A stretch of 64,000 nt of DNA from an uncultured virus (IMG/VR IMGVR_UViG_3300005337_000018). Lineage: Duplodnaviria > Heunggongvirae > Uroviricota > Caudoviricetes. Positions 972 to 62,266 of the stretch are shown piece after piece. Position numbers and translations under genes: made by a program. The notes beneath the pieces were generated by a model. That model saw only the letters and a list, made by a program, of their open reading frames with translations, ran no database searches and was not told where the DNA came from. How positions within the stretch are numbered: position 1 is the first letter of the stretch; every line of letters starts with the position of its first letter. The stretch is taken from IMG/VR virus record IMGVR_UViG_3300005337_000018; one strand, written 5' to 3'.

Positions 972-2993
972 TCACGGGACCAGAGCCTTGTCGACCACGT
1001 ACAGCGCGCTCGGTTTGCCGGTGGCATCCTTGGCACCCGGCACCGCCGTGACCCCGGACCCCGGCCGCGCCGCCATGGCCTCGAGCGCCTTGCGCAGCAG
1101 TGGCGACATACCGCGCCGCGCCGTCTTGGGGTTCACCGTGGACAGCGCCTTGCGGATGATCTCCTCCCGGCCGAACCCGTGCGCGCGGCGCGCCGGTTCC
1201 TCCCGGGCCATCCGGATGAGCACCTTGCGGACGATGTCGTCGGTGTCCCGCGACTCGCCCTTGGGATTACCGGCCGCCGACGCCGCCAGCGCCTCCCCGG
1301 CTATCTCATCGGCCCGCTTGACCAGGGCCGACGCCATCATGCCCCAGCGCCACGGCAGCAGCCGGACCGCGGCATCGGCGACCGCCGCACCCCGCACCAC
1401 CCGGCCCCCGGCCGCCAGCTCTGTGGCCAGTGCGTCCCGCAGCACGTGCTGCACGACCCGACTGATCAGCGGCGACCACATCATCCGGATGTCGTCCTCG
1501 GCCGTCCCGATGGCCGCCTCGAGCGCCGCCTGCAGCCGCTGCACGCGCCGGTATTCCAGCCGCCCGGCCACGTCCAGCGCCACGTCACCCCGTGGCACGT
1601 CGTCCCCGCCCTGCCCGCCGCCGCCCCACGCCGTCGGCAGGTCCGCCAGCACCGCCGACCGCGGCACCAGCCAGTCCGCCCCCTTGGCCATCGCGCCGGA
1701 CTCCCACGCCCGCAGCCGCCCCTTGACCGCCCGGTACACGTCCGTGTCCGCCACCAGCGCGCCCCAGGCCGCTTCCAGGTCGACCTGTGCCTCCCCCAGT
1801 GGCGTCAGCGCCCCCACGCCGTCCCCGGCCCCCAGCCCGTCCAGGCCGGACCAGGTCACGTCCGCCTTGTCGGAGTACGCCGCCGCCGTCGCCTCATGCC
1901 CACCCGACGTGAACGCCTCGACCACCCAGGCCCGGCCGAACACACCCCGCGAGACGAACGAGTCCGACCCCCGCACCCCGCGGCCGCCGCCCGTCACCTC
2001 GGCGAACACCTCGGTCTGGAACAGCACCGCGAGGTTCAGGGCCACGTTGCGCATGAACTTGACCCCGCCCGACACCCGCGCCGTCTCGATCGAATCCTGA
2101 TCCCACAGATCCAGGAAGAACGTCAGCGCGCCCGCATCGCCGCCGTACGCCGTCAGGTTGCGGAACACGTCCGCCTCCCCGGACAGCACCGCCGCACACC
2201 CGCCGTTGTCCACCGCGAGGTTCCGCAGCGCCTCCACGGTCGGATCCTTGATATAGGTCAGCGGACAGACCCCGGCCCCGAACACTTCGTTGACCTGCTT
2301 CCGCAGCTCCTTCAGGTAGTCGGCGTCCCCGACCACGCCGCCGCCGCCGCTGTCATTCGCGCCGCTCCCGGTGCCCCCGCTCGCCGCCTGTGCCGCCGCC
2401 ATCGTGGCCTTCGCCGCGTCCGCGGCAATGTCCCGCCGCCTCGCCACACCCAGCGCGAGCGCCCGGTCCATCGGCCGCTTGACCGCGGCCAGCGCCGTCG
2501 ACTTGCGCCAGCCGGAGTCGGCCTCGGCCATGAAGTGCATGATCGCCGGGACCTCGAGCCAGCCGCCCTCGGCCTTGGGAGCCCGCAGCATCAGGCCGCC
2601 CTGTGCGCACGTCATCGTGGCCACCGCGGCGAGCCCGTACATCACCCCCAGGTCCGCCCGCGGATCCGCCTCGCAGTAGCGCCGGGCCCACCGCTCGAGC
2701 CCCAGGTCCGAACCCCAGCCCACCGGCAGCAGCCGCTCCCCGGTATCGAACCCGGTGGCAATCGCCGTGATGATGGCGACCGCCGCCTTCGTGTACCCGG
2801 GTGGCAGGTCGAACCCGCTCAGCCCCTTGATGGCCGCCGCGCCCCAGTCCGCCCCGGCCGTGTCGATCTTGCCGCTACCCGCCCCGCCGTCACCCTCCGG
2901 CTTGGTCGCACCCGGCGAACCGGACGTGTGTTCCTCGAACAGCCCGCCCTCGTCCCAACCGTCTTCCGGCATCGCCGCCGGGCCGCTACTCAC
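972..2993 (-). CDS. DUF3987/YfjI-like P-loop NTPase (primase-associated helicase)
   Basis: AEADSGWRKST Walker-A-like motif, plus DPTVEAL and VLSGEA motifs. GTG start at 2993 overlaps the prim-pol stop (GTGA). Confidence 0.65.
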   Translation of the reverse strand: MSSGPAAMPEDGWDEGGLFEEHTSGSPGATKPEGDGGAGSGKIDTAGADWGAAAIKGLSGFDLPPGYTKAAVAIITAIATGFDTGERLLPVGWGSDLGLERWARRYCEADPRADLGVMYGLAAVATMTCAQGGLMLRAPKAEGGWLEVPAIMHFMAEADSGWRKSTALAAVKRPMDRALALGVARRRDIAADAAKATMAAAQAASGGTGSGANDSGGGGVVGDADYLKELRKQVNEVFGAGVCPLTYIKDPTVEALRNLAVDNGGCAAVLSGEADVFRNLTAYGGDAGALTFFLDLWDQDSIETARVSGGVKFMRNVALNLAVLFQTEVFAEVTGGGRGVRGSDSFVSRGVFGRAWVVEAFTSGGHEATAAAYSDKADVTWSGLDGLGAGDGVGALTPLGEAQVDLEAAWGALVADTDVYRAVKGRLRAWESGAMAKGADWLVPRSAVLADLPTAWGGGGQGGDDVPRGDVALDVAGRLEYRRVQRLQAALEAAIGTAEDDIRMMWSPLISRVVQHVLRDALATELAAGGRVVRGAAVADAAVRLLPWRWGMMASALVKRADEIAGEALAASAAGNPKGESRDTDDIVRKVLIRMAREEPARRAHGFGREEIIRKALSTVNPKTARRGMSPLLRKALEAMAARPGSGVTAVPGAKDATGKPSALYVVDKALVP

Positions 2994-4255
2994 CGCACAC
3001 CCGCCGTCGACTCGTCCAGCGCCGCCGACAGCAGCCGGATCCCGGACTCGAGCCCGGACCGGATCGTGGCCGCGGCCCCCGGGCACCCGCACGCCGCGGC
3101 CGCCCGTGTCATTCGGTCCCGGACCGACTCCACGTCCAGCGCGCCGGACACCACAGCCCGCGCGCCCGGCCCGAACCCGATGGCGTTGAGCAGGTTGTTG
3201 CGCCCGGACTCCGGACCCATCCCGGCCAGCCGGTCACACCACGCCTCGAGTTGCCCCACCGCCGCGCCCTGCACCGCGCCGATGTCGCCCACCAGCCCGT
3301 CGGCCCAGATCCGGACGTCGTCGCTCGTGTAGCCGCCGCCGTCCCGGTAGGACTCCAGCCAGCGCGCCAGCTCGTCCACCGCCTCCGGCCCGACCTCGGC
3401 CGCCACCCGCGCCTGCAGCCACGGAGCCACCGCCCGGATCGAACCCGGCCCGTAGCCCGGCCCGTAGACCTCGTGATGATCCAGCAGCAGTCCCGGGTCG
3501 TGCACCGGCCGCATGGCCGACCGCATCCCGCGCCGGGTCCATGCCATGGCCGCCTCGTACTCGCCCGGCAGCGCCCAACTCCGGTCCGCCTGTGGCCCGC
3601 CGAACTCGGCCCCCGGCCAGACCACGTAGCGCCCCGGCCCGGTCCGGACGTCCAGCAGGTAGCCCCGCACCCCGACCTTCCCGGGATCCGTGCCGTGCCA
3701 GTCGCCCAGCCACAGCGACATGGCCCGGTTCAGCGCGCCCTGTGTCCAGCCGGGCATGGAAAGCCAGACGTGCCAGCCCCGTGGCGTCCGTGCGATACCC
3801 ATGATCATTCCGACCGGCACGGTGTCCAGCACCCGGATCCACGCCCGCATCGCCCGCGGGGAGTCGATGTCGACCACCACGACGTCGGCCAGGCACACCC
3901 CGGCCCGCCTCGAGCCCCAGCCGCCCGGCAGAGCGCCCAGCTCGGCCAGTTCCACCGCATCCGAAGCACCGTGGCGGAACCCGGCATCCTCGCCGTTCAC
4001 CCGGACCCACCAGGGATGCTTCCCCGGTGTCCGGCACCGCCCCGGCTCGCCCCACGCGCCGCCGCCGGACAGCACGTCCGCACCGCCGCCGCCGCGCCGG
4101 GAACCCTCCCGGCAGCAGCACTCGCCCAGCACGTCCAGTTGCCAGACCGCCAGCCACCGACGCCCCGCCAGCCGCGGGTCGTCGGCCGGGATCACCAGCC
4201 GGGAATCGGAATGGTCAGTTGACACAACGTCGTGGAATGACAACGCTGGCACCAT
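2990..4255 (-). CDS. Bifunctional DNA primase/polymerase (prim-pol)
   Basis: VVVDIDS, RTPRGWHVW and LDVRTGPGRYVVWPG motifs, with an N-terminal Cys/His cluster (ECCC...CRTPGKHP). Start chosen at the ATG after GAGAGG; the ORF is open to 4306. Confidence 0.8.
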   Translation of the reverse strand: MVPALSFHDVVSTDHSDSRLVIPADDPRLAGRRWLAVWQLDVLGECCCREGSRRGGGGADVLSGGGAWGEPGRCRTPGKHPWWVRVNGEDAGFRHGASDAVELAELGALPGGWGSRRAGVCLADVVVVDIDSPRAMRAWIRVLDTVPVGMIMGIARTPRGWHVWLSMPGWTQGALNRAMSLWLGDWHGTDPGKVGVRGYLLDVRTGPGRYVVWPGAEFGGPQADRSWALPGEYEAAMAWTRRGMRSAMRPVHDPGLLLDHHEVYGPGYGPGSIRAVAPWLQARVAAEVGPEAVDELARWLESYRDGGGYTSDDVRIWADGLVGDIGAVQGAAVGQLEAWCDRLAGMGPESGRNNLLNAIGFGPGARAVVSGALDVESVRDRMTRAAAACGCPGAAATIRSGLESGIRLLSAALDESTAGVR

Positions 4256-4832: not shown

Positions 4833-6160
4833 GTCAGCGTGTAGGTCAGGTCGTTGGACGTCAGCGCGCCGCCCAGTCCGTCGTTTATCCAGACGTGGAT
4901 GGGCTTGGAACCCGCGGTACCGCTCCCACCGAAGTGGCAGTTGGCCGCCGTGTCCGTGGCCGAATCCACCACCACGCTCCCGCCGCCGTCGGCCGGGATA
5001 TAGGCCGTGATGCCCTGTGCCAGTCCGGTCCCGGCGAGCACGAACGTCTGACCCAGCAGGCTCGCCCCGACGAACGTGTTCGGCGTCATCGATGTCAGCA
5101 CCGGCGTGACCGGTGCGGGAGCCGCCGCCGCGACCGTGAAGGGAAGCTCGTTGGAAGTCAGCGACCCGCCCGCCCCGTCCGAGATCCACACCGACAGATC
5201 ACAGTCGTAGGGAGCGCCGGTCATGTTCAGACCGGTCGTGAACGTCAGGGTGGCTTGGGTGGGGCTGTCCGCCCGGTAGCCGAATATCGGGCCTATGGTG
5301 GCGGGGCACTCCGAGAACGCAGTGAGTGCCTGATCCAGATTCGTGCCGACCAGCGTCACCGTCTCGCCGGTGTGGTTGGGACCGACGAACGTATTCGGAG
5401 TCATCGAAGTCAGTGTCGGTTGACGTGGCGGTTCGGTCACCACGAAATCCACGATGTTGGAGCCGACCGGGTTGATCGGATTGAACAACTGGACCGGCAC
5501 CGAACCCGCAGCGCCCACCGTGTACAGGAACGTCACCTCGGTGGCCGACACCCACGTCGTGGCAATCTGCGCCCCGCCGCCGATGCTCGCCTTGATGCCG
5601 TTCAGGAACCCCGCGCCGTGCGCGTGGACCGTCGTACCCCCGGCCCCTGCCACCGCGGTCGCCGGGACCAGGGATGTCAGCGTCGGCCGTGGCGGCATCG
5701 CCGTGATGGTGAAGTCCAGCGCGTTCGACGCCGGGCTGTCCGCGTTACGCACGGTGATCTTGGCCGTGCCTGCCGCGCCCGGCCGGTAGACCGCGTCCAC
5801 CTCGGTGTCCGAGACGAACGTGGTGGCCAGCGCCCGGGATCCGGCGTAGACCACCGCCCCGTCCTTGAACCCCGTGCCGTGCACCTTCAGCGCGACCTGC
5901 ACCCCGGCCGTGCCGGTCGTCGGAGTGAGGCTCGTCAGCACCGGAGCGGGCCCCGTGTCGCCGGTGCCCTCGTCGCCGGACCCCTGGCATTGCAGGTCCG
6001 TCGCACCGCGGTAGCGCGCCGCCTGACAGTTCAGGAAGTCCGCGTTGTCCGCACCGCTGATCGTGGATCCGCCCGGTGGATCCTCCACGATCCAGGGCCA
6101 GTTCGGATCACCCGTGTCGTCGGCCGTACCCGGCCCGTCGATCGCCGTGGCCGATGTCAT
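4829..6160 (-). CDS. IPT/TIG (Ig-like) repeat protein, possible virion decoration
   Basis: Four repeats beginning P(V/T)LTS(L/M)xP and containing (H/V/A)G(T/A)(G/N)(F/L). ATGA overlap with the upstream gene. Confidence 0.7.
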   Translation of the reverse strand: MTSATAIDGPGTADDTGDPNWPWIVEDPPGGSTISGADNADFLNCQAARYRGATDLQCQGSGDEGTGDTGPAPVLTSLTPTTGTAGVQVALKVHGTGFKDGAVVYAGSRALATTFVSDTEVDAVYRPGAAGTAKITVRNADSPASNALDFTITAMPPRPTLTSLVPATAVAGAGGTTVHAHGAGFLNGIKASIGGGAQIATTWVSATEVTFLYTVGAAGSVPVQLFNPINPVGSNIVDFVVTEPPRQPTLTSMTPNTFVGPNHTGETVTLVGTNLDQALTAFSECPATIGPIFGYRADSPTQATLTFTTGLNMTGAPYDCDLSVWISDGAGGSLTSNELPFTVAAAAPAPVTPVLTSMTPNTFVGASLLGQTFVLAGTGLAQGITAYIPADGGGSVVVDSATDTAANCHFGGSGTAGSKPIHVWINDGLGGALTSNDLTYTLT

Positions 6161-6441
6161 TCGCCGTCGCCGTTCTCGTCGTCCGGCTCCTCGGCCGGTG
6201 CCTCCTCGGACTCGGACTCGGACTCGGACTCCTCCTCGCCCTCACCCTCACCCTCACCCTCGCCCTCGCCCTCGCCCTCGGCACTCTCACCGGAGCGGAA
6301 CGCCTCGGCGTTGGCCACCAGCACGTCCCGGTTGGCCCCGCCCGTCCACACCGTGCCGCCGTCCTCCACCTGATACGGGTACGGGTTCGGCACGCCCACA
6401 CCCTCGGTGCCCTCGGTCGTTTCCTCGTCCGGATCGGTCAT
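6157..6441 (-). CDS. Small very acidic protein with (EG)n(ES)n tail
   Basis: MTDPDEET start. EGEGEG/ESESES run encoded by 6-nt repeats at about 6205-6280. Confidence 0.65.
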   Translation of the reverse strand: MTDPDEETTEGTEGVGVPNPYPYQVEDGGTVWTGGANRDVLVANAEAFRSGESAEGEGEGEGEGEGEGEEESESESESEEAPAEEPDDENGDGE

Positions 6442-7125: not shown

Positions 7126-7840
7126 CGTCGCCGTCGTCCATCGGGCCGATCGCCATGACCACCCGGCCCGGCCCGGCGAGCGACATGGCGACCCGTTGGT
7201 ACAGGTCGTCCCACATCTCCCCGGTCACCTCACCCTTGCCCTGATCCCTCATCCACTCGGAGAACCGCGGCATCGTCATCATCTTGGACATCACGTGCAC
7301 CAGGTCCCCGGGCCCGCCGTACTCCTCGTTGTCACCGTCCGCGGCCTCGCCCCACAGCACCAGCCGATCGCTCGCCCCGTCACTGTCGACCACCCGGGCC
7401 TCCCGGTACGGGATCGCCGACATCAGCACCGTGCCGGTCCGGTCCGCGCCGTAGACGATGAGAGCCTGTCCGACGGGCCGGTCGTCACCGAATGACACGT
7501 CGGTCCCGATCCCGTCGCCGAACTCGGCGTGGTAGGTCCCAGGGCCGCCGGGAGCCCACTCCAGGCCGGTCCGCGGGTCGATGGCCGATATGGTGATCCA
7601 GGCATCCAGCCCGACCATCAGGAACTCGGAATCGATCGATGCCACCCGGCTCAGCAGGTCGATCATCGGGCCCCGGTCGACGGCATCACCGGTGCACATC
7701 ACCGACAGCCGCGGGAACCCGTCCCGAATCCCGAACACCAGCGCGCCGGGCATCACGTCCTGATCGACCGATCCCTTGCAGTGCCGGGTGAAATCCTCGA
7801 GCCACTCCGGCAGCGTGTGGTCGTGCCCACCGGTGATCAT
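7112..7840 (-). CDS. Hypothetical protein
   Basis: MITGGHDH start coupled to the upstream stop (TGATG). Confidence 0.6.
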   Translation of the reverse strand: MITGGHDHTLPEWLEDFTRHCKGSVDQDVMPGALVFGIRDGFPRLSVMCTGDAVDRGPMIDLLSRVASIDSEFLMVGLDAWITISAIDPRTGLEWAPGGPGTYHAEFGDGIGTDVSFGDDRPVGQALIVYGADRTGTVLMSAIPYREARVVDSDGASDRLVLWGEAADGDNEEYGGPGDLVHVMSKMMTMPRFSEWMRDQGKGEVTGEMWDDLYQRVAMSLAGPGRVVMAIGPMDDGDDDDG

Positions 7841-8106
7841 CAGCGCCACTCCACGATCGCCGGGGTCCGCGGATCCCGCGGCCACCGGTGCGCGATACCC
7901 AGTGCAACGTGGCCCTTGTCCAGACCGCAGACGTAGAACTTGCGGCCGTGCAGTTTCTGCGCCAGTGGCGGCATCGGTTCGGGTGAGACCGCCTTGCACC
8001 AACCGGCAACCTCCCGTGCCACGGACGCCTCGAGCGCTTCCATGGCCAACGGTGGCGGCAGCTTGTGCTTCCCGGCCGCCGACAGGCGGCTCAGTGGCCG
8101 TGTCAT
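7840..8106 (-). CDS. Hypothetical protein
   Basis: ATGA overlap with the upstream gene; MTRPLSRL start. Confidence 0.5.
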   Translation of the reverse strand: MTRPLSRLSAAGKHKLPPPLAMEALEASVAREVAGWCKAVSPEPMPPLAQKLHGRKFYVCGLDKGHVALGIAHRWPRDPRTPAIVEWR

Positions 8107-8363
8107 TGCGTCCTGCCCTTCACTTCGCGCCATGCTGCCAGCGCCGTCTGGATGTTCCTGTCCATCGTCAGTTCGCCCGCCTCGAGCGGGTTCGGAACGC
8201 GCAACCCGAACGCCGTCCAGATCCCCAGCCCGCCACAGGAGACACACAGCGACACGTCGCCGACCTTGGGCAGCCGCCAACCCTCGCCGCCGATCGCCGA
8301 CACCCGGTCGGCCTCGTAGCCGCAGAACGGGCACACGGTCCGGGTCGGCCCCAGCCTCGTCAT
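8103..8363 (-). CDS. Hypothetical zinc-ribbon protein
   Basis: CPFC...CVSC; ATGA overlaps at both ends. Confidence 0.6.
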   Translation of the reverse strand: MTRLGPTRTVCPFCGYEADRVSAIGGEGWRLPKVGDVSLCVSCGGLGIWTAFGLRVPNPLEAGELTMDRNIQTALAAWREVKGRTQ

Positions 8364-8506
8364 GGCCGCACCACGACGATCTCGATCGGTTCCGGCCGGT
8401 GCCGGTGCGGCAGATCGCACTCGACGCGCCGGACCTCCTTGGGCCCCGGACACCTACATTGTGCGTGTAGCCAGCCGTACTGGCACAACTCCTTGTAGTG
8501 CGTCAT
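8360..8506 (-). CDS. Small Cys/His-rich hypothetical protein (48 aa)
   Basis: MTHYKELCQYGWLHAQCRC; fills the gap with ATGA overlaps at both ends; below the ORF track cutoff. Confidence 0.45.
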   Translation of the reverse strand: MTHYKELCQYGWLHAQCRCPGPKEVRRVECDLPHRHRPEPIEIVVVRP

Positions 8507-8709
8507 TCCTCGTTCTCCCAGTCGTCGTGCCGGTGGAGCCCGGCCAGTGCCGTCTCCGTCGACAGCCAGCCGTCGTCGCTCTCGACCTGTGGGGTCAACC
8601 GCGGGTCCCAGACCTCGGTGCCGTCCGGCCGTCCGCCGACCGCCTCGTCAATGTCCTCGCCGGTGCACCGGCAGCCCGGCCGCTCGCCGTTGCACAGCCA
8701 GCACTTCAT
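8503..8709 (-). CDS. Small hypothetical protein
   Basis: MKCWLCNGERPGCRC start after an AAGGGG RBS. Confidence 0.5.
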   Translation of the reverse strand: MKCWLCNGERPGCRCTGEDIDEAVGGRPDGTEVWDPRLTPQVESDDGWLSTETALAGLHRHDDWENEE

Positions 8710-8921
8710 GTCGTCCCCTTGGGTGGGGGAGGAACGGTGGGAACGATCCGGGTCAGGAACCCGGTGCCCTGGCAGACCTGGCAGTACCTCGCCGGGACGT
8801 AGAGCAGCCCGCCGTCGCAGTCCGGACACTCCCGCTGCAGAATGACGTGGTCGGGATCGAAGCCCTCCCAGGCAACCTCGTCCTTCGCCGCCATCGGGTG
8901 GCCACCAAGAATCCGCGCCAT
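8706..8921 (-). CDS. Small protein with CxxCxGxG zinc-finger-like motifs
   Basis: CPDCDGG...CQVCQGTG. Confidence 0.5.
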   Translation of the reverse strand: MARILGGHPMAAKDEVAWEGFDPDHVILQRECPDCDGGLLYVPARYCQVCQGTGFLTRIVPTVPPPPKGTT

Positions 8922-9232
8922 CAGGACGACTGTCCGTCCACCATGAGAGTCGTTAGTTCGCGCCGGATCTCGGCCAGCGCGTTGCGTCGCCGGGTATCGG
9001 CTGATCGGGACGGCCGGGTCGGCGTCCCCTCCCAGTAGCGGGGAAGCATCGCCCGGGCCATCCGCCAGACGTAGGTCGGCTTGGTGATCCGGTCCATGAA
9101 CCGCTCGATCGCTTCGTCCGACAGCGCGCCGCCATCCGATACCGGACGGCAGAAATGCAGGTCCGCGTAGCCCGGATGCTTGGGATCCTCCGGCCACCGC
9201 TCGCCGCACCGATCGCAGATCGCACCCTTCAT
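8921..9232 (-). CDS. Hypothetical protein
   Basis: MKGAICDRCG start after a GAGAGG RBS; overlaps its neighbours. Confidence 0.55.
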   Translation of the reverse strand: MKGAICDRCGERWPEDPKHPGYADLHFCRPVSDGGALSDEAIERFMDRITKPTYVWRMARAMLPRYWEGTPTRPSRSADTRRRNALAEIRRELTTLMVDGQSS

Positions 9233-9525
9233 GACGTCACCTCTCCCTCGATCTTCCGGAGCCGGGCCCGGTGAGAACCACCGTTCGACCATGCCAACTC
9301 GTCCAGGTGCACCCAGAGACCGGGCAGCACCAGTGATTCCCGCACCGCGCCACCGCAGTGGTCGCACCAGCGTGTCGCCATGGCCACCTCGTCCGCCACC
9401 GCCATCAACTCCTCGCCCAGTTTCCGCGCGTCATTCGGTGCGAGCCAGCCGACGGTGCCGGTCACCGACACCTCGACCTGCCCGGTCCGCGGGCCTTCGG
9501 CCGCCGCCGCCCACGTGTCGCTCAC
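9229..9525 (-). CDS. Hypothetical protein
   Basis: GTGA overlap; fits the operon. Confidence 0.55.
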   Translation of the reverse strand: MSDTWAAAAEGPRTGQVEVSVTGTVGWLAPNDARKLGEELMAVADEVAMATRWCDHCGGAVRESLVLPGLWVHLDELAWSNGGSHRARLRKIEGEVTS

Positions 9526-9605
9526 AGCGCTGGATGCAGCATGATCTGCACCGCCAGCACGGCGATCGCCAGTGCCGACAGCACGGCGAGCACCAGTGCC
9601 AGCAC
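9522..9605 (-). CDS. 27-aa single-pass membrane peptide
   Basis: MLALVLAVLSALAIAVLAVQIMLHPAL after TAAGGA; its stop overlaps the next start. Confidence 0.45.
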   Translation of the reverse strand: MLALVLAVLSALAIAVLAVQIMLHPAL

Positions 9606-9609
9606 GTCC

Positions 9610-20185: not shown

Positions 20186-20222
20186 TCCGGCAGAGTACAC
20201 CCGCACTCAACAATAACCCGGG

Positions 20223-21142: not shown

Positions 21143-21166
21143 TCCGGGAGAGTAACACCCGCTCAA

Positions 21167-21845: not shown

Positions 21846-21846
21846 G

Positions 21847-25462: not shown

Positions 25463-25463
25463 G

Positions 25464-25706: not shown

Positions 25707-25716
25707 GTCATTCCTC

Positions 25717-53822: not shown

Positions 53823-56800
53823 GCCACCAGCACCTCCTCGGCCTCGGCCGCGGCCGTGACGGTGTCGTAGCTCAGTGGGATCGACGTGATCGGAACGACG
53901 TTCGGCGGGATGTACGCAGTCATGGTGGAAGCGTTGGTCGCCTTGGCCTTCGTGTGGGTCAGAATGACATCCTCGAGCGCACGCCCGTTGAACGATGTGA
54001 CGCCCTTGGACTTCAGGTACTGGATCGCCGCGTCGACACCACTCTGGGACGGCAGGCTGATGTAGCCCGTGGCCTCCCCGGGGATCCCGCCACCGAGGTA
54101 CAGATCCTGAACCTGGCTCTGGTTCAGAGCCGCCTTGAGTGAACTGCTGCCCTGTCCGTGTCCCTTGCCCCAGGCGTCAACGTGTTCGGGCCCGGCTCGC
54201 CAGTCCTGAATCCGGCTGAGCACCGACATAGGGTGGTAGTAGACGACCATCGCTTCACCGGCCGGGAACAGCGGATTGCGGCCCGGGAGCTTGACGCTGT
54301 TGATCGCGGAGGAGAATGACCCGTTTCCGGCGTTGTTCAGTGAGTCGGCGTGCGGGGATGATCCGTGGCCACCGGTCATTCCTCCGGCTCGCTTCAGCAG
54401 ACCATTCGCCGCGCCGAATCCGAGCGCGCTCATCACACTCGGCGGGGTGCCGCTGTTGTGCCCGCTCGCTCGGATGACCTGTTTCACCTGAATCTTGCTG
54501 GCGATCTTCTTCTGCACCCGCTCCGACCAGAAGTAACTGACCTTGCCGGTGGACTCGTCGGTGCCGACCAGGATGTCATCCCAGGTGAGATCCGGGATCC
54601 CGAGCGTCGTGCCCGCGGTGTCGAACAGTTTCTTGTCCGTCCACCCCTTGGTGGAGTCGGAGTCCGTCATGTCCAGACTGAGCAGGTTGCGCAGCATCCC
54701 CTTGGCGGTCGTCTTGGCGGAGTCCTGTGTCAGCGGGGTGATCGGGATCCCCAGGTCGGCCAGCGCGGCGTTCAGGTGGGTCTCGTCGGTGCCCTCCGGC
54801 AACGTGATCGCGGTGAGCCCGATCGCGGAGTCGATCCCCTTCTCGCCACCGCCCCAGCCGCCGGACGACTTCTCGAAATCGATACCCATGACCTCAACGA
54901 CCACACCGTCGGCGGTCACCTTCCGGAGCCCCGGCTGGACGCCGTCGTGCCACGGAATGACAGAGGATCCCACCGGCGTACCGGGTTCGTGGTCCAGCAC
55001 ACCGTCCTGGACGCCACCGGTGATCTTCGAGATCACCCCGTCGTGCTTTGCGAGTTTGGCCCAACCAGCAGCCTTGGCCTCGTCGGAAAGCACCAACGGC
55101 TTGCGGTTCCCGTAGGTTGCAACGCCGCTCGAGGTGGACGTCGCGTCCGGCTCGATCTTGGGCTTGTTCGGGTCCCAGGTGAAGACCGGCAACCCACCCG
55201 TGTGACCGGCCATGAAATTGCTGGTGATGATGGAGTTGTCGTCCATGTTCTCGAGCGTGACGGTGATGTTCCCATCACCCTTGGGCTCGACCTTGCTGAC
55301 CTTGTGTGTCGCCGGACCGTCGGTCGACACCTTCCAGGCGCTCGAGTGTGACGACCAGCGCATGGAGACGATGTCCCCGACGGCGACGTCACCACTGTCC
55401 TTGCTGGACTTCGCCCAGTCACCGAGTTTCGGCGGGGTGCTCGCCGCCTGACTGAGCTTGTCCCGGAGCTTATCGACCTGAGCGTGAGTCAGATTCATCA
55501 AGACCCGGTTGACCTTCTTGCCGGACGGAGTCTTGACGCTGGTCACGACCATCTCGCCGCCGACCGTGCCACCGGACCCGGAGACGATCGGCCGCCACTG
55601 GCCGTCCTTGATCGTCTTGGTGAGTGCCTCGCCCGGGGGGTCCGCGGCGAACGGCATCCCGCTGGGCACCGGCAGCGTGGCCGGGGGAGCGACGTAGGCG
55701 GGCTTGGTCGGGTCCGGGCCCGGCGTGACCACCAGCCGATCGATGATCCGCTTGGACTTCTTGCCGTCGATGTCCAGGGTCGCCGTCTTGCCGTCCTTGG
55801 AGACCGAGATGATCTTGCCCTTGTAGGACTTGGACGCATTGGTGACTGTCATTCCGGGCTTGGGGATGTACCCGTTCTTGGTCAGCACACCACCGGTGGC
55901 CTTCCAGGAGTTGATCGCCTCCCCACCCGGCTTGTCCGGCATGACCAACGGGACGTTCGGAGCCGGAGTGGCCGGGGCTGCCGGAGCCGGTGTCGGCGCT
56001 ACTGGAGTCGTGAAGACCGAAACCGTAGTCAGAGGTGGGAGATCCTCCGTTGTGGTCTCGATCCCGTTGTTCCACAGGGTCCATTGCGTTTCCGAACTGG
56101 TTTCGAGGTAGATGGGATCCGTCTCGAACTGATCTACCTCCCCGCTGATCGGGGAAATCATGTGCAGGGAGCCGTCCGCGGCGACCTCGAAGTTCATCTT
56201 GGTGGAGGCACCGGTAGTTGGATTGACGTTGCTGTAGTGCAGCACCTTCTTTCCGGTGGGGTCATAGGCGTCCGGAATGTCGAACGACGGAGCAGTCGGG
56301 GCAGGAGCACTGGTCGTCGTGGTGCTCGGAACGATGCCGAGACCGTTCGGGTTGATCGGCGACGACGGAGCGTTCAGCATGTCGCCGAGACTCGCGCCGG
56401 AAACCGAGACTCCGTTGGCCCACAGCGTCCAGGTGACGTTGTCCTTCCCGTTCAGGAGATCCATCGCATCCGGGCTGACCGGTGTGTCGTACACCGTCCC
56501 GTCGAGACTGGAAATGACGTGGAAGGTTCCGTCGTCCCAGACCTCCATCTCGACGTCGACGGAGTTGTCCGTGCTGATGGCGTGGATGAGTTTCTTGCCG
56601 GTCGGGTTGTAGCCGCTCGGCAGGGTGAACGGCGGGGTGGGAGCGCTGGCCTGGTTGGTGCTCGGGACCGCGCTCGGTGCGCCGAACTCCAGCTTCCAGT
56701 AGTTGCCCGGATCCGACTTCGGATCGGTATCCGGTTCAACCGCCCAGTCGCCGTCCGGGTACACCCAGTGGTAGTTGCCGTCCGCCTTCAGGATGTACAA

Positions 56801-59800
56801 CTGAGTGCCGCCCGAGTTGGTCCACAGGGACTGTCCCTGCTCGAGCTTCCCGACTGCATCGATCTTCTCGTTGACCGCCGACCACAGCGAACCCAATCCG
56901 GATCCGGAAGGAATGATCACCTCGCTGGACTTGATCGGAATGACACCGCTGGCACCCGGCAGGATGTCCGGCGTCGGCGTCCCGGCCGGGGTGTCGGCAC
57001 CGCCCTGCAGGATGGTGAAGTCACCTTCCGGCTTCTCGGACTTCATCCAGTCGACCAGTGTCTCGGAGATCGGGTCGCTGACGTCCAAGGCACCGTTCTC
57101 GACCTTGAAGTAGTTGCCGGTGCCGCCGGGCTGGACGTAACTCTTGACCGAACCGTCCAGCGTGACGATGGCGACGACCTTGTCATTCGCCTCGGTCTGG
57201 TACCCGTCGGCGACGATGCCCGCCTGGCCCATACCCTCGGGGGTGCCGTTCCAGAACTCGGTCTGCCAGTCGGCGTAGGGCCCGTTGTCCGGGTCGGTCA
57301 GGTAATCGGCGGTGAAACCGTTTGCAGTCCAGGTCCACTTGCCGGTGACCGGGTTGAACGAATGCTCGTGCCACAGCCCATCGGCGTGTGCCACGAACAC
57401 CATGGCCGGAGCGTCCGGGTCATCCGGGTCCGCGAGCTTCATGTACAGACTCGCGCCGGGCTCGCCCGTGTTGGTGTTCGGAACCCAGTCCGGTGAGACT
57501 GTCTTCTTGTCCCCGGCCACGACGAAGATGCCAGTGCCGGACTCCCCGGTCGTGCCGTCCCAGTGCTGGACCGTGTAGGTGTCCGGCATGACACCGTTCT
57601 TGATGTCCTGGTCCATCGCGGACAACTCGGCCAGCGTGCCGTTGAACAACACTCGCTGGTACGTGCCGTCGTCCTGCAGTTCGTAGAGTCGCGGTTCGCC
57701 GTAACCGAAATCGACGTGGACCAGCTTCTTACCCGCGGGGTCGTACTTGGTCGGCACCTCGAACGGAGGAACATCCGACACCGTGGTCACCGAAGGGCCT
57801 TGTACATCCGGCATCGTCAGAACGGCCAGGACGTCCTCGCCAACCAGCTCCGGCGTGACCTTCTGCATGTTGGGCAGGGTCTTCTGCTGATCGGTGCTGT
57901 TGTCCCAGAGCTTGGTGACCGGGTTCCACACCGCCACGGAGGTGCTCGGGCCCCACGCATAGAAATTGTCGTCGTCGTCGTTGAACCAGACGTCGACCAG
58001 GTTGGGACCAGCGTTGACCATCGACTTGAAAGTTGCGTCGTCACCGAGCTTCTGCAGTGTGATCTGGTCGGCGATGTACGCACCGGACTTCTTGGTGGGT
58101 GCTCCCGTGGAGTGGACCCCGGATCCCGTGGTCGAGTTGTTCGCCGTGTAGAGCGCGTTGACGTCGGCCTGGTCGACATTCGGCACCGGCTCGGCAGCAC
58201 CGGCCTTGGTGACGACCATCCCGTTGATCGCCGGGTAGTCCTTGAAATCGATCGTGTAGTCGTTGCCGTTGGTGTCGATCACCGGAATGACAGGGTTGTC
58301 ATCGGTGGTCGGTGGCCCCAGGAGCGTGTAGACGGTCCCGTCCACCGACTCGCCGTTGTCGGACGTCAGGGTGAACGAGTCGCCCTTGGACAACGACTTG
58401 ATCAAGTCCGGCGTGATCGGGTGGACGTTGCCGGGAGGACCGGACAGTGTGGACTGGTCATTCAGGTCGACGTCCGGGAGATCCTGGTCCGGTTCCGGCG
58501 TAACGGCCGGAGGTTCCGGAGCTTCCGGAAGTCCGGGCTGGTAGGACCACTGCTTGTTGCTGTCCTTGTACACAGCCGTAAAGGCCGTACCGCCGTCGAG
58601 AGAGATCGAGTAGTGGTTCGATCCATACCCCACGGACTCGACGGTCCAGACCTGCCCGTTCGCCGGATCGGTCAGCTTGTCGCCGACCTTGGGGCTCCAG
58701 TCGGCAATGGTCTTGGTGGTGTCGGCGTCGAGTGGCGCGATGACCGCGGGTTGCGGTGCGGCCTCCGGCAGCGTCTGGCCACCCTCGTCATCGATCTTGA
58801 CCGCGGTGGTCGACTTCCGCTTCTTGACCCCGGCGGAGTTGGTGATCCAGATGAACTGGCCGTCCGGCGAAACCATGACGATCTGCCCGGTGTGGCCGTC
58901 CTTGGCGGTCGCTGTCATTCCGACCGCGGGCACCACGCCGTTGGAGGACTTCGGCTTCTGGATGCCTTCCGGATTAGGAGCGGCTCCGGCGACCGACAAC
59001 GTGCCGACCGTCTTCAGGTACTCCTTGCCGTCCGCACCCTTGACCGCGGCGTAGGGCCCGGCTTTGTTCAGGAACTCGTACTCCTGGCCGTCCACCTTGG
59101 ACACGACCTTGACGCCCGGCGTTGCGGTGTTCCCGTCACCGAGCACCATGGTCTGCGCGGCCTCGACCACGCTGGTCGACTTCTTGGCCGGAGGGGTCTT
59201 GGGCTTGGCCAGTCCCGGAGGGTTACCGGATCCGTCCGGCAGCGGCGTGACCAGGTCGGCCTTGATCGCATCGCTGGCCGTCACCGCCATGCCGGTCGGC
59301 ACCGCGGGCTCGTTGGCCGCGTTGAGTAGTTCCTGCTCCCACTCCTCCAACTCGACCGGAGTGTCCGGAGTATTCGCCACCTGAGTGTCGTTCGGCGCGT
59401 TCACCGGGCTCTGGACACTCTCCGGAACGACCGGTGGGTTCCAGCGCTTCATGGTGTACGGACCGGCGTTGGCCCCATCTACCAGGAACGGGGAAGGCTT
59501 GTCCACGCCTTCGCTGACCTGCCGTCGGAGCAGTACGGCCCCGGTGGACTTGTTGGTGCCCAGCACGAAGTATGCGGTTCCGGTGGGATCCACCAACCGG
59601 TCCCCGCGCTCGTACCGGTAATCGGTGAGGTGACCAATCGGGATCTCGGCATCATGATCGATGCGGGTGTCGAACAGCGCACCCTTACGCACCCGGACCT
59701 TGTCATTCGCATGGCTGGTCAGCCATGAATAGAGCTGAGCCGACGAGTTGAACGTGTTCAGGATCTCGCCGGACTCGGCAACGCCGTAGACCTCCTCGAT

Positions 59801-62266
59801 CACATCACCGTTCGGCGAGGTGAACTGCACCCGGTCCCCCGGCTCGAGAACGGTGTACGCCTCGGGCATGGACAGCGAGTGCGACCACTTCCGGTCCTTA
59901 CCGCCACCAGAGGTGATGTCGGCCGGGTCCACCAACGGCGCAGTGGTCGGTTCCGGGGAGTCCATCGGCTTGATCGACTCGGGCAGCGGAAGTCCGTAGT
60001 AACTGGCGATGTACGAGCGCCGGGCCTTGAGCGTGTCGGCCAGCGACTTCGGCAGCCCGCGCTCGGCGACCATGTCATCGATCGCACCGGGCGAGATGGC
60101 AAGCACCCGCTGGGCACCGTCCAGCTCGGCGTCCTTGGACATGACGTCCTTGCCGTAGACCGCCGCGTTCTTGCCCTGCCGTAGCGATTCCAGCTCACCG
60201 ACCGCGTCCCCGAAATCGGCACCCTTCGGGCTGCCCTGGGCCCGGAACAACAGAGAGCCACCAGCATCGATCCGCAGCGGTGTCTCGGACCCATCGGACG
60301 TGGTCATGACGTTGTCGTAGTTCGCGCCGAACACATCCCAGTTGGCCAGCCAGGCGTCGACAACGAAGTCCTTCTGGAGCTTCTCGCGCCAGACCGGATC
60401 GCTCATCCGCGTCTGCATGTCCTGCACCGCGGGTTCCATCTCGGAGTAGGTCTTGCCGTCCAGCCCGGTCGACACGTTCGGCACTCGAACACCGGCCGCG
60501 GCGTACAGGTCGTTGGCCAGTTCCTCGTTCTGGCCGTGCTTCTTGGTCTTCGGCGTCTTGACGTAATACTTGGTGGTCTTCGGCTCGGCCGCCTGCTCGA
60601 TGACCGCGGGCAGAATGACAGAGGCGTCCGGAGCCTTGGCGATGTCGCGCCACTTCTTGGTGGCGGACTCGGTCTTGCCCGTCGCCGGATACCACTCGGT
60701 GACGGTCATGTTCTCGTTGGCCGCCATGTCGGCGATCTGTTTCGGGGTGTAGCCGTCACCGAGGAGGTTCCCCGCCTGGCTCCCGCTGGGCACGATCCGG
60801 AAATACTTGTTCTGGTTCGCGTTGTACGAGTAGAACCGGGCCTTGTTCCCCCAACCTAGCCGAATGACTTGGGGTGGACCGAAAGTCACATACTTCCAGC
60901 CGTCGTACTCGATGGGCAGCCCCTTGAGGCGGCCCTTCCCGGCATTCGGATCCATGCCGACGTACTCGCCCGGCCCATACTCGGCCTCGATGTCGGACCG
61001 CTTGTACAGGGGCTTCAGAGCCGGTGAATCGGGATCCGGCTGGACGTTGTCGTGGAACGTGTCCCCGGTGTCCGGGTCGATCCGCATCCACTCGCCGCTG
61101 TAGCCCTGCTGGACGAAGACCTTGTCGTCGTAGACCAGGAAGTTGTCGATCGGTTGCTTGGAGTAGGCGGGCGGGACCTTGGCCAGCGCTTCCGCCTTGT
61201 CCGGGTCCACCGGGGGCGGGTCGTAGTGCTTCGGTGCACTGGACGTGGTTTCCGGTGCGGCCGTTGAGATCTCGCCCTTGACCACAGTCCCGGGTTCCGT
61301 GATCTCATACGAAGCACCGGGATTCGACCCCAACTGCGGGCCGACCTGCTTGGCGTTCGGGCTCGAGGTGGAGAGGTTTGCCTTCTTCTCCGGCGAGGTG
61401 TAGATGTCCGACGGCTTCAGCTCGATGTCGGGTGCACCGGTCGGTACTCCGGACAGGTTCGACGGAGTGACATTGATGACCGGTCCACCGGGTCCCGGGT
61501 AGATCCCGGTGACCTTGCCGTAGTTCCACATCCCGTTGACTTTGGACAGGAACTTGATGACCGAGTTCTTGCGGATGAACTTGCCGTCCTTGCCGCGCGG
61601 GTGCAGCGCCGGGTCCCACACCCCGGCCGCGGCACTCATCGGCAGCGGATCGAAGAACCCGTCGGCCTCGGTGTCGTCGGCGATGTACTCGGCGTCATCG
61701 CTGGCGTGCCAGAGCGCCTCGAAGTCTTGGGCCCCGGCGAGATCGAATGTCATTCGCTTCTCGCCCAGCCAGAGCCCGATCGCCGCGATCTCGATGGAGT
61801 CCGGGACTTCTTCCTCCGGAGGTAGCCCGCCGCCGTAGTTCAGCGTCAGGTGCGGGACGAAGTTCGGGTACTGCTCACAGGACGCCATGGCCGCGGCCAC
61901 CGGAGGTGCGGTCATCAGCAGTTCCCGCAGCGCGACCAGCTCGGCCGACTCGACCAGCAGTACGTTCGCGCCGTCGTCGCCCAGCGTCGCGGTCCCGGCG
62001 ACCTTCACCGAGAACGGTGGAGTGACCATCGCGGCCGTGCCGACACACTGCATGATCGCCTGAGTCAGCTCCGGCCCCAGATCACCGGAGTCACCCAGCC
62101 AGTTCAGCGTGATGTGCGGGGAATCATCCACCAGATCAGTGGCCGGATCCGTCTCGGCCGGAAGGGCGACGGTCAGCGCGCCGGTGTATCCGTCCGACTC
62201 CTGTTCCTTCTCGACCTTGACGTAGGTGACCTCGACGTCGGACTCGGCCTCGTTCTCGTAGATCAC
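53819..62266 (-). CDS. Giant multidomain head-region protein (2H phosphoesterase + HPRG tag + HipA/PI3K-like kinase + SH3-like and other repeats)
   Basis: PHITL and PHLTL (two HxT motifs); LHPRGKDGKFI; GSNPG...YVK...NE.LA..LY...DAWLANWD....DN...IDAGG; GTGA overlap with the portal stop. Confidence 0.8.
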   Translation of the reverse strand: MIYENEAESDVEVTYVKVEKEQESDGYTGALTVALPAETDPATDLVDDSPHITLNWLGDSGDLGPELTQAIMQCVGTAAMVTPPFSVKVAGTATLGDDGANVLLVESAELVALRELLMTAPPVAAAMASCEQYPNFVPHLTLNYGGGLPPEEEVPDSIEIAAIGLWLGEKRMTFDLAGAQDFEALWHASDDAEYIADDTEADGFFDPLPMSAAAGVWDPALHPRGKDGKFIRKNSVIKFLSKVNGMWNYGKVTGIYPGPGGPVINVTPSNLSGVPTGAPDIELKPSDIYTSPEKKANLSTSSPNAKQVGPQLGSNPGASYEITEPGTVVKGEISTAAPETTSSAPKHYDPPPVDPDKAEALAKVPPAYSKQPIDNFLVYDDKVFVQQGYSGEWMRIDPDTGDTFHDNVQPDPDSPALKPLYKRSDIEAEYGPGEYVGMDPNAGKGRLKGLPIEYDGWKYVTFGPPQVIRLGWGNKARFYSYNANQNKYFRIVPSGSQAGNLLGDGYTPKQIADMAANENMTVTEWYPATGKTESATKKWRDIAKAPDASVILPAVIEQAAEPKTTKYYVKTPKTKKHGQNEELANDLYAAAGVRVPNVSTGLDGKTYSEMEPAVQDMQTRMSDPVWREKLQKDFVVDAWLANWDVFGANYDNVMTTSDGSETPLRIDAGGSLLFRAQGSPKGADFGDAVGELESLRQGKNAAVYGKDVMSKDAELDGAQRVLAISPGAIDDMVAERGLPKSLADTLKARRSYIASYYGLPLPESIKPMDSPEPTTAPLVDPADITSGGGKDRKWSHSLSMPEAYTVLEPGDRVQFTSPNGDVIEEVYGVAESGEILNTFNSSAQLYSWLTSHANDKVRVRKGALFDTRIDHDAEIPIGHLTDYRYERGDRLVDPTGTAYFVLGTNKSTGAVLLRRQVSEGVDKPSPFLVDGANAGPYTMKRWNPPVVPESVQSPVNAPNDTQVANTPDTPVELEEWEQELLNAANEPAVPTGMAVTASDAIKADLVTPLPDGSGNPPGLAKPKTPPAKKSTSVVEAAQTMVLGDGNTATPGVKVVSKVDGQEYEFLNKAGPYAAVKGADGKEYLKTVGTLSVAGAAPNPEGIQKPKSSNGVVPAVGMTATAKDGHTGQIVMVSPDGQFIWITNSAGVKKRKSTTAVKIDDEGGQTLPEAAPQPAVIAPLDADTTKTIADWSPKVGDKLTDPANGQVWTVESVGYGSNHYSISLDGGTAFTAVYKDSNKQWSYQPGLPEAPEPPAVTPEPDQDLPDVDLNDQSTLSGPPGNVHPITPDLIKSLSKGDSFTLTSDNGESVDGTVYTLLGPPTTDDNPVIPVIDTNGNDYTIDFKDYPAINGMVVTKAGAAEPVPNVDQADVNALYTANNSTTGSGVHSTGAPTKKSGAYIADQITLQKLGDDATFKSMVNAGPNLVDVWFNDDDDNFYAWGPSTSVAVWNPVTKLWDNSTDQQKTLPNMQKVTPELVGEDVLAVLTMPDVQGPSVTTVSDVPPFEVPTKYDPAGKKLVHVDFGYGEPRLYELQDDGTYQRVLFNGTLAELSAMDQDIKNGVMPDTYTVQHWDGTTGESGTGIFVVAGDKKTVSPDWVPNTNTGEPGASLYMKLADPDDPDAPAMVFVAHADGLWHEHSFNPVTGKWTWTANGFTADYLTDPDNGPYADWQTEFWNGTPEGMGQAGIVADGYQTEANDKVVAIVTLDGSVKSYVQPGGTGNYFKVENGALDVSDPISETLVDWMKSEKPEGDFTILQGGADTPAGTPTPDILPGASGVIPIKSSEVIIPSGSGLGSLWSAVNEKIDAVGKLEQGQSLWTNSGGTQLYILKADGNYHWVYPDGDWAVEPDTDPKSDPGNYWKLEFGAPSAVPSTNQASAPTPPFTLPSGYNPTGKKLIHAISTDNSVDVEMEVWDDGTFHVISSLDGTVYDTPVSPDAMDLLNGKDNVTWTLWANGVSVSGASLGDMLNAPSSPINPNGLGIVPSTTTTSAPAPTAPSFDIPDAYDPTGKKVLHYSNVNPTTGASTKMNFEVAADGSLHMISPISGEVDQFETDPIYLETSSETQWTLWNNGIETTTEDLPPLTTVSVFTTPVAPTPAPAAPATPAPNVPLVMPDKPGGEAINSWKATGGVLTKNGYIPKPGMTVTNASKSYKGKIISVSKDGKTATLDIDGKKSKRIIDRLVVTPGPDPTKPAYVAPPATLPVPSGMPFAADPPGEALTKTIKDGQWRPIVSGSGGTVGGEMVVTSVKTPSGKKVNRVLMNLTHAQVDKLRDKLSQAASTPPKLGDWAKSSKDSGDVAVGDIVSMRWSSHSSAWKVSTDGPATHKVSKVEPKGDGNITVTLENMDDNSIITSNFMAGHTGGLPVFTWDPNKPKIEPDATSTSSGVATYGNRKPLVLSDEAKAAGWAKLAKHDGVISKITGGVQDGVLDHEPGTPVGSSVIPWHDGVQPGLRKVTADGVVVEVMGIDFEKSSGGWGGGEKGIDSAIGLTAITLPEGTDETHLNAALADLGIPITPLTQDSAKTTAKGMLRNLLSLDMTDSDSTKGWTDKKLFDTAGTTLGIPDLTWDDILVGTDESTGKVSYFWSERVQKKIASKIQVKQVIRASGHNSGTPPSVMSALGFGAANGLLKRAGGMTGGHGSSPHADSLNNAGNGSFSSAINSVKLPGRNPLFPAGEAMVVYYHPMSVLSRIQDWRAGPEHVDAWGKGHGQGSSSLKAALNQSQVQDLYLGGGIPGEATGYISLPSQSGVDAAIQYLKSKGVTSFNGRALEDVILTHTKAKATNASTMTAYIPPNVVPITSIPLSYDTVTAAAEAEEVLVA

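Follow-up and report, generated by a model that had tools for sequence, protein, structure and literature searches.

A dispersed eight-letter DNA word in a large soil phage, kept in either orientation and one dialect of a family-wide word

The DNA analysed here is a 64-kb stretch (the window) of a large soil phage, an uncultured member of the Caudoviricetes held as IMG/VR record IMGVR_UViG_3300005337_000018, and the element in question is GAATGACA, an 8-letter word that we counted on both strands. The GC content of the window was measured as 66%, not the about 70% given in the original prediction, which had been made from the letters of this DNA alone. A gene caller based on the GC content of third codon positions (GC3) called 81 genes, all on the minus strand, and 92% of the window is coding. 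Judged from its genes, the phage is of the siphovirus type. The structural genes encode a portal, a 2815-aa protein, a protease, the major head and major tail proteins, a tape measure and further tail proteins, and a replication and recombination module comprises a Cas4-like exonuclease, a Sak4-like protein, a protein resembling single-stranded DNA-binding (SSB) proteins, a family A polymerase, an SNF2 helicase, a PrimPol (gene at 2990-4195; match to PF09250 Prim-Pol, E 2e-07) and a DUF3987 helicase; many small genes are present as well. An IMG/VR contig adds 5.6 kb at the right end of the window, and this extension contains the terminase gene. Two second records, G001 (99.99% identical over 23.4 kb) and likewise L010, represent the same phage and were therefore dropped as close relatives for a test of site conservation. 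The CheckV estimate for the G001 fragment implies a genome size near 100 kb, of which about 70 kb are covered and about 30% unseen.

GAATGACA is present in 46 exact copies in the window, 18 on the plus and 28 on the minus strand. The original prediction had claimed at least 46, and each of its coordinates and strands is an exact match. Under a third-order Markov model 2.0 copies are expected, which makes GAATGACA the top-enriched 8-mer of the window, so that this enrichment check, proposed earlier, came out positive. In 100 shuffles that preserved dinucleotides the count never came near 46, with 1.39 copies on average and 4 at most. Five further copies lie in the extension. The average density is about one per 1.3 kb, in genes and gaps and on either strand. 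The flanks add almost no information: the base at -1 is C or G in 39 of the 46 copies, and an A follows directly 3′ in three of them. The 7-mer GAATGAC occurs 71 times, and three one-mismatch variants were found above expectation, GAATGACC (13), GAATGACG (9) and CAATGACA (5).

The copies are spaced more evenly than by chance. Their mean distance is 1320 bp with a coefficient of variation (CV) of 0.66, vs 0.98 for random placement (p ~0.0006, 5000 simulations), in line with the regularity first noticed by eye; the smallest gap between exact copies is 243 bp (p ~0.0002) and the largest 4104 bp. The one-mismatch copies that had been described as filling gaps are present as well, at 4819, 8501, 8840, 9429, 10009, 14336, 14839 and 15266, mostly in the form GAATGAC[C/G]. 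Such variants fill the two largest exact-copy gaps (8-10 kb and 14-17 kb) and keep a greater distance to the exact copies than randomly chosen points (Mann-Whitney p 0.03).

Selection on GAATGACA acts at the level of the DNA, not of the protein. Altogether, 32 of the 46 copies are fully inside called genes, 16 in sense and 16 in antisense orientation, and they are read in four registers, which bears out the earlier claim of different frames and orientations. The 28 sense copies comprise the 16 in genes (R/G-M-T or N-D-x), nine on start codons or stop/start junctions, close to the ten or so first estimated, and three that are intergenic; among the 18 antisense copies 16 are in genes (V-I-x or V-S-F) and two intergenic. 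The 2815-aa gene holds ten copies, as claimed. Junction copies supply their own ATG or TGA as start or stop, for example as GAA-TGA-C-ATG or in an ATGA overlap, and for eight of the 28 sense copies a start is found within 10 bp, where 0.7 would be expected. The overall sense excess (28:18) thus comes from the 12 junction or gap copies, in which the ATG or TGA of the word serves as start or stop. When synonymous codons were shuffled (200 times each), the 46 copies fell to 10.5 on average with shuffling within genes and to 8.9 with shuffling across genes, and at least seven of those left are junction or gap copies outside the reach of the shuffle. Among codon positions that could hold GAATGACA synonymously, 32 of 49 do so; the corresponding figures are 2 of 162 in this window for the word of related phages described below, and 0 of 41 for GAATGACA in one of these relatives, G003. 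A protein motif is ruled out by the four registers, the occurrence in both orientations and the synonymous shuffle.

Frequencies in unrelated high-GC DNA were checked in three actinobacterial replicons (0.41, 1.81 and 0.70 Mb), where GAATGACA has 2, 4 and 6 copies and GGTTGACA 0, 12 and 10. Either word is found there at most once per 100-450 kb and is no commoner than its reversed control. The original prediction is thus supported in part. Its core, a recognition site that is dispersed, selected as DNA and would mark the whole genome, holds in view of the synonymous shuffle, the use of most synonymous opportunities, the equal sense and antisense use inside genes and the absence from these unrelated replicons, but none of the readers proposed with it was borne out (see below). 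The positions of the individual copies and of other features are given in Table 1.

Table 1. Positions of GAATGACA copies, exact-copy gaps and other features in the window
Feature	Position	Strand	Orientation	Context
GAATGACA copy	2351..2358	-	sense	inside DUF3987 helicase gene (A-N-D-S)
GAATGACA copy	3107..3114	-	sense	inside PrimPol gene (R-M-T-R)
GAATGACA copy	4235..4242	+	antisense	intergenic
GAATGACA copy	6155..6162	-		on ATGA stop/start overlap
GAATGACA copy	7490..7497	+	antisense	in gene (V-S-F-G)
GAATGACA copy	11166..11173	+	antisense	in gene (T-V-I-P)
GAATGACA copy	12116..12123	-	sense	in gene (R-M-T-A)
GAATGACA copy	12955..12962	-	sense	SNF2 helicase gene
GAATGACA copy	13743..13750	+	antisense	SNF2 helicase gene
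GAATGACA copy	17847..17854	+	antisense	Sak4-like gene
GAATGACA copy	18839..18846	-	sense	in gene (R-M-T-A)
GAATGACA copy	20180..20187	-		over probable leaderless ATG of exonuclease gene; conserved TACTCT promoter block 4-5 nt upstream
GAATGACA copy	21137..21144	-		intergenic; TACTCT promoter block upstream
GAATGACA copy	21845..21852	-		gene junction GAA-TGA-C-ATG
GAATGACA copy	22112..22119	+	antisense	intergenic
GAATGACA copy	22656..22663	+	antisense	in gene (D-V-I-R)
GAATGACA copy	23787..23794	+	antisense	in gene (V-S-F-L)
GAATGACA copy	24206..24213	-		immediately 5′ of start codon
GAATGACA copy	25462..25469	-		stop/start junction
GAATGACA copy	25706..25713	-		immediately 5′ of start codon
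GAATGACA copy	26278..26285	-		contains TGA stop codon
GAATGACA copy	27524..27531	-		stop/start junction
GAATGACA copy	30162..30169	-	sense	in gene (G-M-T-G)
GAATGACA copy	30693..30700	+	antisense	in 248-aa gene
GAATGACA copy	32371..32378	-		ATGA overlap of winged helix-turn-helix (wHTH) gene and 156-aa gene
GAATGACA copy	34282..34289	-		contains start codon
GAATGACA copy	36555..36562	-	sense	tail gene (W-N-D-I)
GAATGACA copy	39563..39570	+	antisense	tape measure gene
GAATGACA copy	41001..41008	-		intergenic
GAATGACA copy	41690..41697	-	sense	in gene (R-M-T-S)
Tandem of GAATGACG variant and exact GAATGACA	42049..42065	+	antisense	in gene; 9-bp step
GAATGACA copy	44141..44148	+	antisense	major tail gene
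GAATGACA copy	46851..46858	-	sense	major head gene
GAATGACA copy	48713..48720	+	antisense	in gene
GAATGACA copy	50184..50191	-		intergenic
GAATGACA copy	52081..52088	-	sense	797-aa protease-region gene (50228-52621)
GAATGACA copy	53962..53969	+	antisense	2815-aa gene
GAATGACA copy	54955..54962	+	antisense	2815-aa gene
GAATGACA copy	55847..55854	-	sense	2815-aa gene
GAATGACA copy	56938..56945	+	antisense	2815-aa gene
GAATGACA copy	57181..57188	-	sense	2815-aa gene
GAATGACA copy	58285..58292	+	antisense	2815-aa gene
GAATGACA copy	58913..58920	-	sense	2815-aa gene
GAATGACA copy	59701..59708	-	sense	2815-aa gene
GAATGACA copy	60613..60620	+	antisense	2815-aa gene
GAATGACA copy	61748..61755	-	sense	2815-aa gene
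Exact-copy gap	8101..10016			five one-mismatch copies inside (CAATGACA, GAATGACG x3, GAATGACC)
Exact-copy gap	14336..16660			seven one-mismatch copies, five of enriched variants (GAATGACC/G, GAATGAAA)
Replication origin	282..608			directly downstream of DUF3987 helicase gene; iterons GTCGCATCC around AT-rich core
248-aa gene	30583..31329	-		only in word-bearing genomes; weak candidate reader
wHTH gene	32373..32627	-		84 aa; candidate reader, also in word-less relatives

By DNA, the sole match in the phage collection is one of 264 bp to Gordonia phage GMA2, and by protein, identity of the capsid to capsids of large actinophages does not exceed 41%. GAATGACA has 1-4 copies in each of the 37-41-kb pieces analysed from GMA2, DSL-LC01, Sixama, Phendrix and Mimi. 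An enrichment of TTTGACAC in Mimi was ruled out as a dispersed word and constitutes a protein repeat. In the 41-kb piece of Gordonia phage Sixama (L004, 53% GC) CCCCGGCG occurs 13 times vs 0.43 expected, with 11 copies on the coding strand; it is a different, strand-biased dispersed word. Searched by tblastn against 50,697 phage records and 72,556 plasmids, the PrimPol and the helicase gave no match, nor did they in the genome contigs collection. Scanning metagenome and IMG/VR contigs with an alignment of PrimPol homologs and then with a conserved 156-aa protein recovered a family whose members have structural and replication modules in common at roughly 30-70% protein identity. The PrimPol of P0002 is 79% identical to that of this phage.

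One group within this family, the GT-type members (68.5-72% GC; 40-60% protein identity to this phage), has no GAATGACA and carries GTTGACA instead, with the dispersed consensus Y-G-GTTGACA-C. Four GT-type genomes (94-100% complete, 83-90 kb) contain 84-111 copies of GTTGACA each vs 0-3 of the reversed control, and nine metagenome loci as well as L001 have YGGTTGACAC and no GAATGACA. In G003, G precedes every TTGACA. Aligned on TGACA, both words read G-NN-TGACA, where NN is AA here and GT in the relatives, and the relatives' word GGTTGACAC differs from GAATGACA at two of eight core positions. GAATGACA is thus a dialect of the G-NN-TGACA word of the family. Further members, G006 to G010 (60-65% GC), are word-less in that no comparable word was found in them. 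G006 has a weak word, GGGAA[C/G]AC, 15 times in 38.5 kb vs about 3 expected by a hand estimate, and by eye some copies look like the codons of GKT-type Walker A motifs.

Copies of the GT dialect inside genes are distributed 24:36, 34:33 and 37:37 between sense and antisense in three genomes, and they are read in several registers, for example V-D-T, V-S-T and x-V-N. In G003, 57 of 252 synonymous opportunities are used, including 21 of 37 V-D-T positions. Sites of G003 at orthologous coding positions were kept in 16 of 33 cases in G005, 17 of 32 in G004 and 7 of 19 in G002, vs 15-22% for background 7-mers. The sites are thus subject to purifying selection and at the same time to turnover. In the genes shared by this phage and its GT-type relatives, no site position coincides.

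Strand tests covered the four complete relatives and this phage including the extension, and site pairs less than 60 bp apart were merged first. With orientations pooled, the CVs of the relatives are 0.56, 0.56, 0.63 and 0.70, and none of 3000 simulations was as low; per strand, the CVs range from 0.67 to 1.01 (p 0.004-0.65). The pooled evenness exceeds that of two independently shifted strands (p 0.0013, <0.00025, 0.0015 and 0.0005), and per-strand CVs and run counts match those of an evenly spaced pooled array whose orientations are labelled at random. Evenness in the four complete relatives is a property of the pooled orientations, not of each strand. The pooled CV of this phage is 0.68 (p 0.0013). 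A cumulative-sum (cusum) test for a change-point in orientation gave p 0.91 here and 0.92, 0.32, 0.08 and 0.04 in the relatives; there is no consistent orientation polarity along the genomes or around the single iteron origin.

In this origin, an AT-rich core of about 80 bp has six direct GTCGCATCC iterons on one side and inverted ones on the other (two exact and four near copies); no exact GTCGCATCC iteron was found elsewhere in the window. The origins of L015 and L021 lie at the same place with different iterons (GTGTCGCA and GGTGTGC-like, respectively), and these two have one dispersed word in common. Origin-binding specificity thus varies independently of the word, and loading sites of the helicase (Rep) are ruled out as an explanation of the copies. 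Each of the three origins read also has a CTGACCTGCGG-like element next to its iterons. The PrimPol and helicase end of the window (1-4000) has 72.7% GC vs 62-70% elsewhere.

The word of the GT-type relatives is also part of their promoters. Close word pairs with a 9-bp step are conserved promoters of the form GTTGACA-NN-GTTGACA, about 9 nt, CATACT, 6-7 nt and ATGACGCAGA(C), in which the first copy of the tandem lies at -35 distance (18 nt) and the second in the spacer. This strict pattern occurs 6-10 times per GT-type genome and is absent from the word-less relatives and from this phage; beside the tandems, GT-type genomes have 74-87 single sites. Within G002-G005 (e.g., G003:43026-43100), 7-11 copies of ATGACGCAGA were noted, most of which open small genes (M-T-Q-T) 6-7 nt past CATACT; these starts look like those of leaderless early transcripts with conserved first 11 nt.

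The window contains two related promoter-like blocks on the minus strand, at 20180-20243 and 21137-21200, of the form GTTGAG(C/T)...GGTGT(T)ACTCT-(G/C)CCG-GAATGACA-C, also given as ..CCGGAATGACAC. In both, GAATGACA lies over the start site and the ATG. Because the ATG of the word is in frame, a leaderless start of the exonuclease gene is suggested, 13 nt downstream of the GTG call. Single sites were ruled out as promoters of their own, as a TANNNT box 16-19 nt downstream is found for 0 of 51 sites here and for 1 of 75, 1 of 83, 1 of 87 and 2 of 74 in the relatives. In the word-less G006 (18449 and 27792), only 8 nt separate GTTGACA from a downstream TATACT or TATATT box. This is too close for a normal -35/-10 pair, and the upstream promoter element of the family may thus have a reader other than sigma region 4.

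Searching for a protein that could read the word, we found five genes in all five word-bearing genomes, encoding a 63-71-aa zinc ribbon, a 248/306-aa protein, an AcrVA2-like protein, a zeta-toxin-domain head protein and a 121/139-aa protein; none of them was found in G006, G007 or G008 (tblastn and hidden Markov model (HMM) searches, E <= 1). The zinc ribbon falls into the Pfam family PF24623 ("putative DNA-binding phage zinc finger"), with an E value of 1.3e-08 in this phage; its gene is found in L009, just outside the window, and the start codon lies directly 3′ of a word copy. The PF24623 model hit four of four near-complete GT-type genomes and none of five word-less records, two of which are 87-88% complete. 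On its family assignment and distribution, this zinc ribbon is the best candidate reader of the word. The 248-aa protein is a weak candidate: it had no Pfam or NCBIfam family, no PDB sequence match and no Foldseek match at E <= 0.001, and its structural model is poor (predicted local distance difference test, pLDDT, 55).

The readers named in the original prediction fared less well. The wHTH protein (32373) is also encoded by relatives without the word, as is the giant head protein, and the zinc finger at 18387 has no detectable ortholog in the relatives. The phyletic profile spoke against the wHTH, 156-aa and 94-aa genes, each of which is present in the word-less G006. The putative recognition helix of the wHTH protein is an invariant TQRVASRLK in four GT-type phages, THDIAIRLR here, and of other sequence in word-less relatives. 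C2H2-type fingers were seen once in the window (18387-18731) and twice in GT-type relatives (G003:51857-52489); BLAST revealed no orthology between the window protein and the GT-type ones.

Several neighbouring gene products have features of their own. The 156-aa protein (31906-32376) contains a conserved H-x4-C ... C-x2-C pattern, is always encoded beside the wHTH gene where the tail operon ends, and is present in every family member examined. The 2815-aa gene (53819-62266), which follows the portal gene, encodes an N-terminal 2H phosphoesterase domain (2′,5′ RNA ligase family); its versions in relatives have 3009 aa, and the product probably has several domains and is packed in the head. A 378-aa protein (9610-10746) has AcrVA2-like proteins (anti-CRISPR type V-A2 family) as nearest atlas clusters, with a feature score of 0.97 and a structural template modelling (TM) score of 0.59-0.68, and it has no Pfam hit.

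Our preferred reading, to which we give a probability of about 0.4, is that the copies form an orientation-blind array of duplex sites for a phage-encoded DNA-binding protein, kept for coverage of the genome and tied to promoters. A sequence-specific protein of the phage would read GAATGACA on double-stranded DNA in either orientation, and selection would hold about one site per kb, leaving no long stretch of the genome without one; the sites would be placed wherever coding allows, start/stop junctions included. The coverage could serve the marking, coating or silencing of the whole genome. Related phages would keep the same system with the changed word GGTTGACAC. Because their word stands at -35 and in the spacer, the reader would also shut those promoters, and in this phage the word covers the transcription start of two such promoters. 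According to a more specific version, one clade of lytic actinophages marks its own DNA with a system private to it, in which the PF24623 zinc ribbon of the packaging module reads an 8-10-bp word kept by selection about every kb, in either orientation and in a switchable dialect (GAATGACA vs GGTTGACAC); in this full form we consider it rather doubtful.

Several points weigh against the array reading. In this phage the comparison of the pooled set with independent strands is weak (p 0.021 for the window, 0.078 with the extension), and its plus-strand copies are spaced somewhat more evenly than expected under random labelling (4th percentile). The upstream element of its promoters is GTTGAG and not the word, and only two such promoters were seen. 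The phyletic link to PF24623 rests on perhaps two independent lineages (five word-bearing and five word-less genomes), so that shared ancestry could explain it, and the genes with the same pattern include the AcrVA2-like protein, which is unlikely to bind the word. Word-less relatives do without any such array. The reader could also be host-encoded. The enrichment, the selection on the DNA, the neutral orientation, the pooled evenness, the change of dialect, the overlap with promoters and the independence from the origin iterons are results of this analysis, whereas that a protein binds the word, which protein this is and what its binding brings about are what we infer.

Four other explanations were considered, all of them less likely than the array reading. 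The first is that GAATGACA constitutes the template recognition site for the phage's own PrimPol, which belongs to the AEP (archaeo-eukaryotic primase) type, so that the starts of lagging-strand fragments are written into its genome. The ~1.3-kb spacing resembles the length of bacterial Okazaki fragments, and in this phage the strands taken singly are both mildly even (p 0.016 and 0.031). PrimPol and DUF3987 helicase are both encoded by the phage and are its replication proteins most diverged from the GT-type relatives (39% and 27-31% identity), and no DnaG-type primase was seen in the window or in the 87/125 gene calls of G003. There is also a precedent for an 8-nt site among helix-bundle AEP primase-polymerases, for which PMC8718748 reports 5′-TTTGGTTA-3′ and GTG for NrS-1 and GTG for pRN1. 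However, those sites are read on single strands, whereas the sites in the four complete relatives are even only when pooled and show random labels per strand. Orientation has no polarity despite a single iteron origin, G006 and G007 keep a PrimPol (41-44% identity) without the word, and GTG is found on the complementary strand in only 13 of the 46 copies. The whole-genome tests point away from priming sites for this family, and we regard them as unlikely.

Alternatively, GAATGACA could be a host signal copied by the phage, for example a Chi-like stop signal for the RecBCD or AdnAB nuclease or the site of a nucleoid or defence protein, and the dialects would then reflect different hosts. Chi sites (RecBCD/AddAB) are over-represented 5-8-mers whose function depends on genome coverage, and Chi is an 8-mer that some phages have reportedly accumulated (PMC3784561). 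The coverage-type spacing would suit the protection of any broken end, and the GC content of word-bearing genomes (66-71%) vs word-less ones (60-65%) could mean different hosts. Yet Chi belongs to the host and is a polar, single-strand signal, whereas no polarity is seen here, and a host Chi would not explain the tandem words in the relatives' own promoters. The three unrelated actinobacterial replicons are not enriched in the word. A host signal is accordingly improbable in our view.

A third possibility, also raised in the original prediction, is the target of a nicking or base-modifying enzyme, kept at intervals for replication, packaging or anti-restriction in the manner of T5-like nicks. 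An exact, short and asymmetric word on both strands fits this idea, as do the large siphovirus type of the genome and the coverage of about 70 of an estimated 100 kb. The 81 window proteins, however, include no methyltransferase, HNH or nickase family, nor do the 87/125 G003 gene calls, apart from an endonuclease VII, and phage nick sites are not known to be enriched or evenly spaced. We consider such an enzyme very unlikely.

The L5 stoperator site reportedly contains TGTCAAG, which resembles TGTCAAC of the relatives. Strict Cluster A stoperators, at which the immunity repressor of a temperate phage (monomeric, L5 gp71-type) blocks elongating RNA polymerase, are similar in density, asymmetric and short, and located both at promoters and at more than 20 dispersed places, but according to PMC9283540 they are 13-mers in short intergenic spaces that are co-oriented with transcription and lose their function on reversal; with most copies inside genes and orientation unrelated to transcription, we can give this reading hardly any credence. 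The phages look lytic, and no integrase or repressor was found in the 81 window proteins, with about 30% of the genome unseen, or in the 87/125 G003 gene calls. The stoperator-like repressor of the original prediction is in its strict sense contradicted by orientation and location of the copies, and the presence of one site both at promoters and dispersed was found here too, in the tandems and single sites of the relatives and the two promoters of the window.

A parallel outside phages is provided by the DNA uptake sequences (DUS) of Neisseriaceae and the uptake signal sequences (USS) of Pasteurellaceae, exact 9-10-mers that occur about once per kb in either orientation and in coding sequence, have lineage dialects and are read by the uptake machinery. 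The word described here resembles them in being exact and short, in its density of about one per kb, in its occurrence in genes in either orientation and in its dialects. DUS and USS belong to competent bacteria, whereas our word is found in phage genomes (with portal, capsid, tail and terminase genes) and unrelated actinobacterial DNA is without it. Among actinobacteriophages, conserved short motifs without an assigned function are repeated within one genome, such as the Cluster EC 18-mers and the start-associated and extended start-associated sequences (SAS/ESAS). These are intergenic, with 5-12 copies upstream of genes in one orientation (PMC7302621), in contrast to about 50-110 mostly coding copies in either orientation here. 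A full-text literature search for GAATGACA gave unrelated papers among the matches listed, mostly primers, and in the accessible main texts on over-represented phage octamers, stoperators and actinophage repeat motifs nothing like this array was found.

Genome-wide words such as Chi, DUS/USS, the FtsK-orienting polar sequences (KOPS) and stoperators are rare cases of selection on the DNA text whatever it encodes, and a mechanism was found through each of them. In the present case the word is maintained by a phage clade near saturation, with two thirds of the synonymous opportunities used, in an orientation-blind, even and dialect-switched manner. Relatives with another word and relatives without any provide natural controls, and together with the short list of candidate readers they make the question directly testable. 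If the self-marking version were true, the array would allow these phages to tell their own DNA from that of the host for packaging, protection or global shut-off, and would represent a viral counterpart of Chi and DUS.

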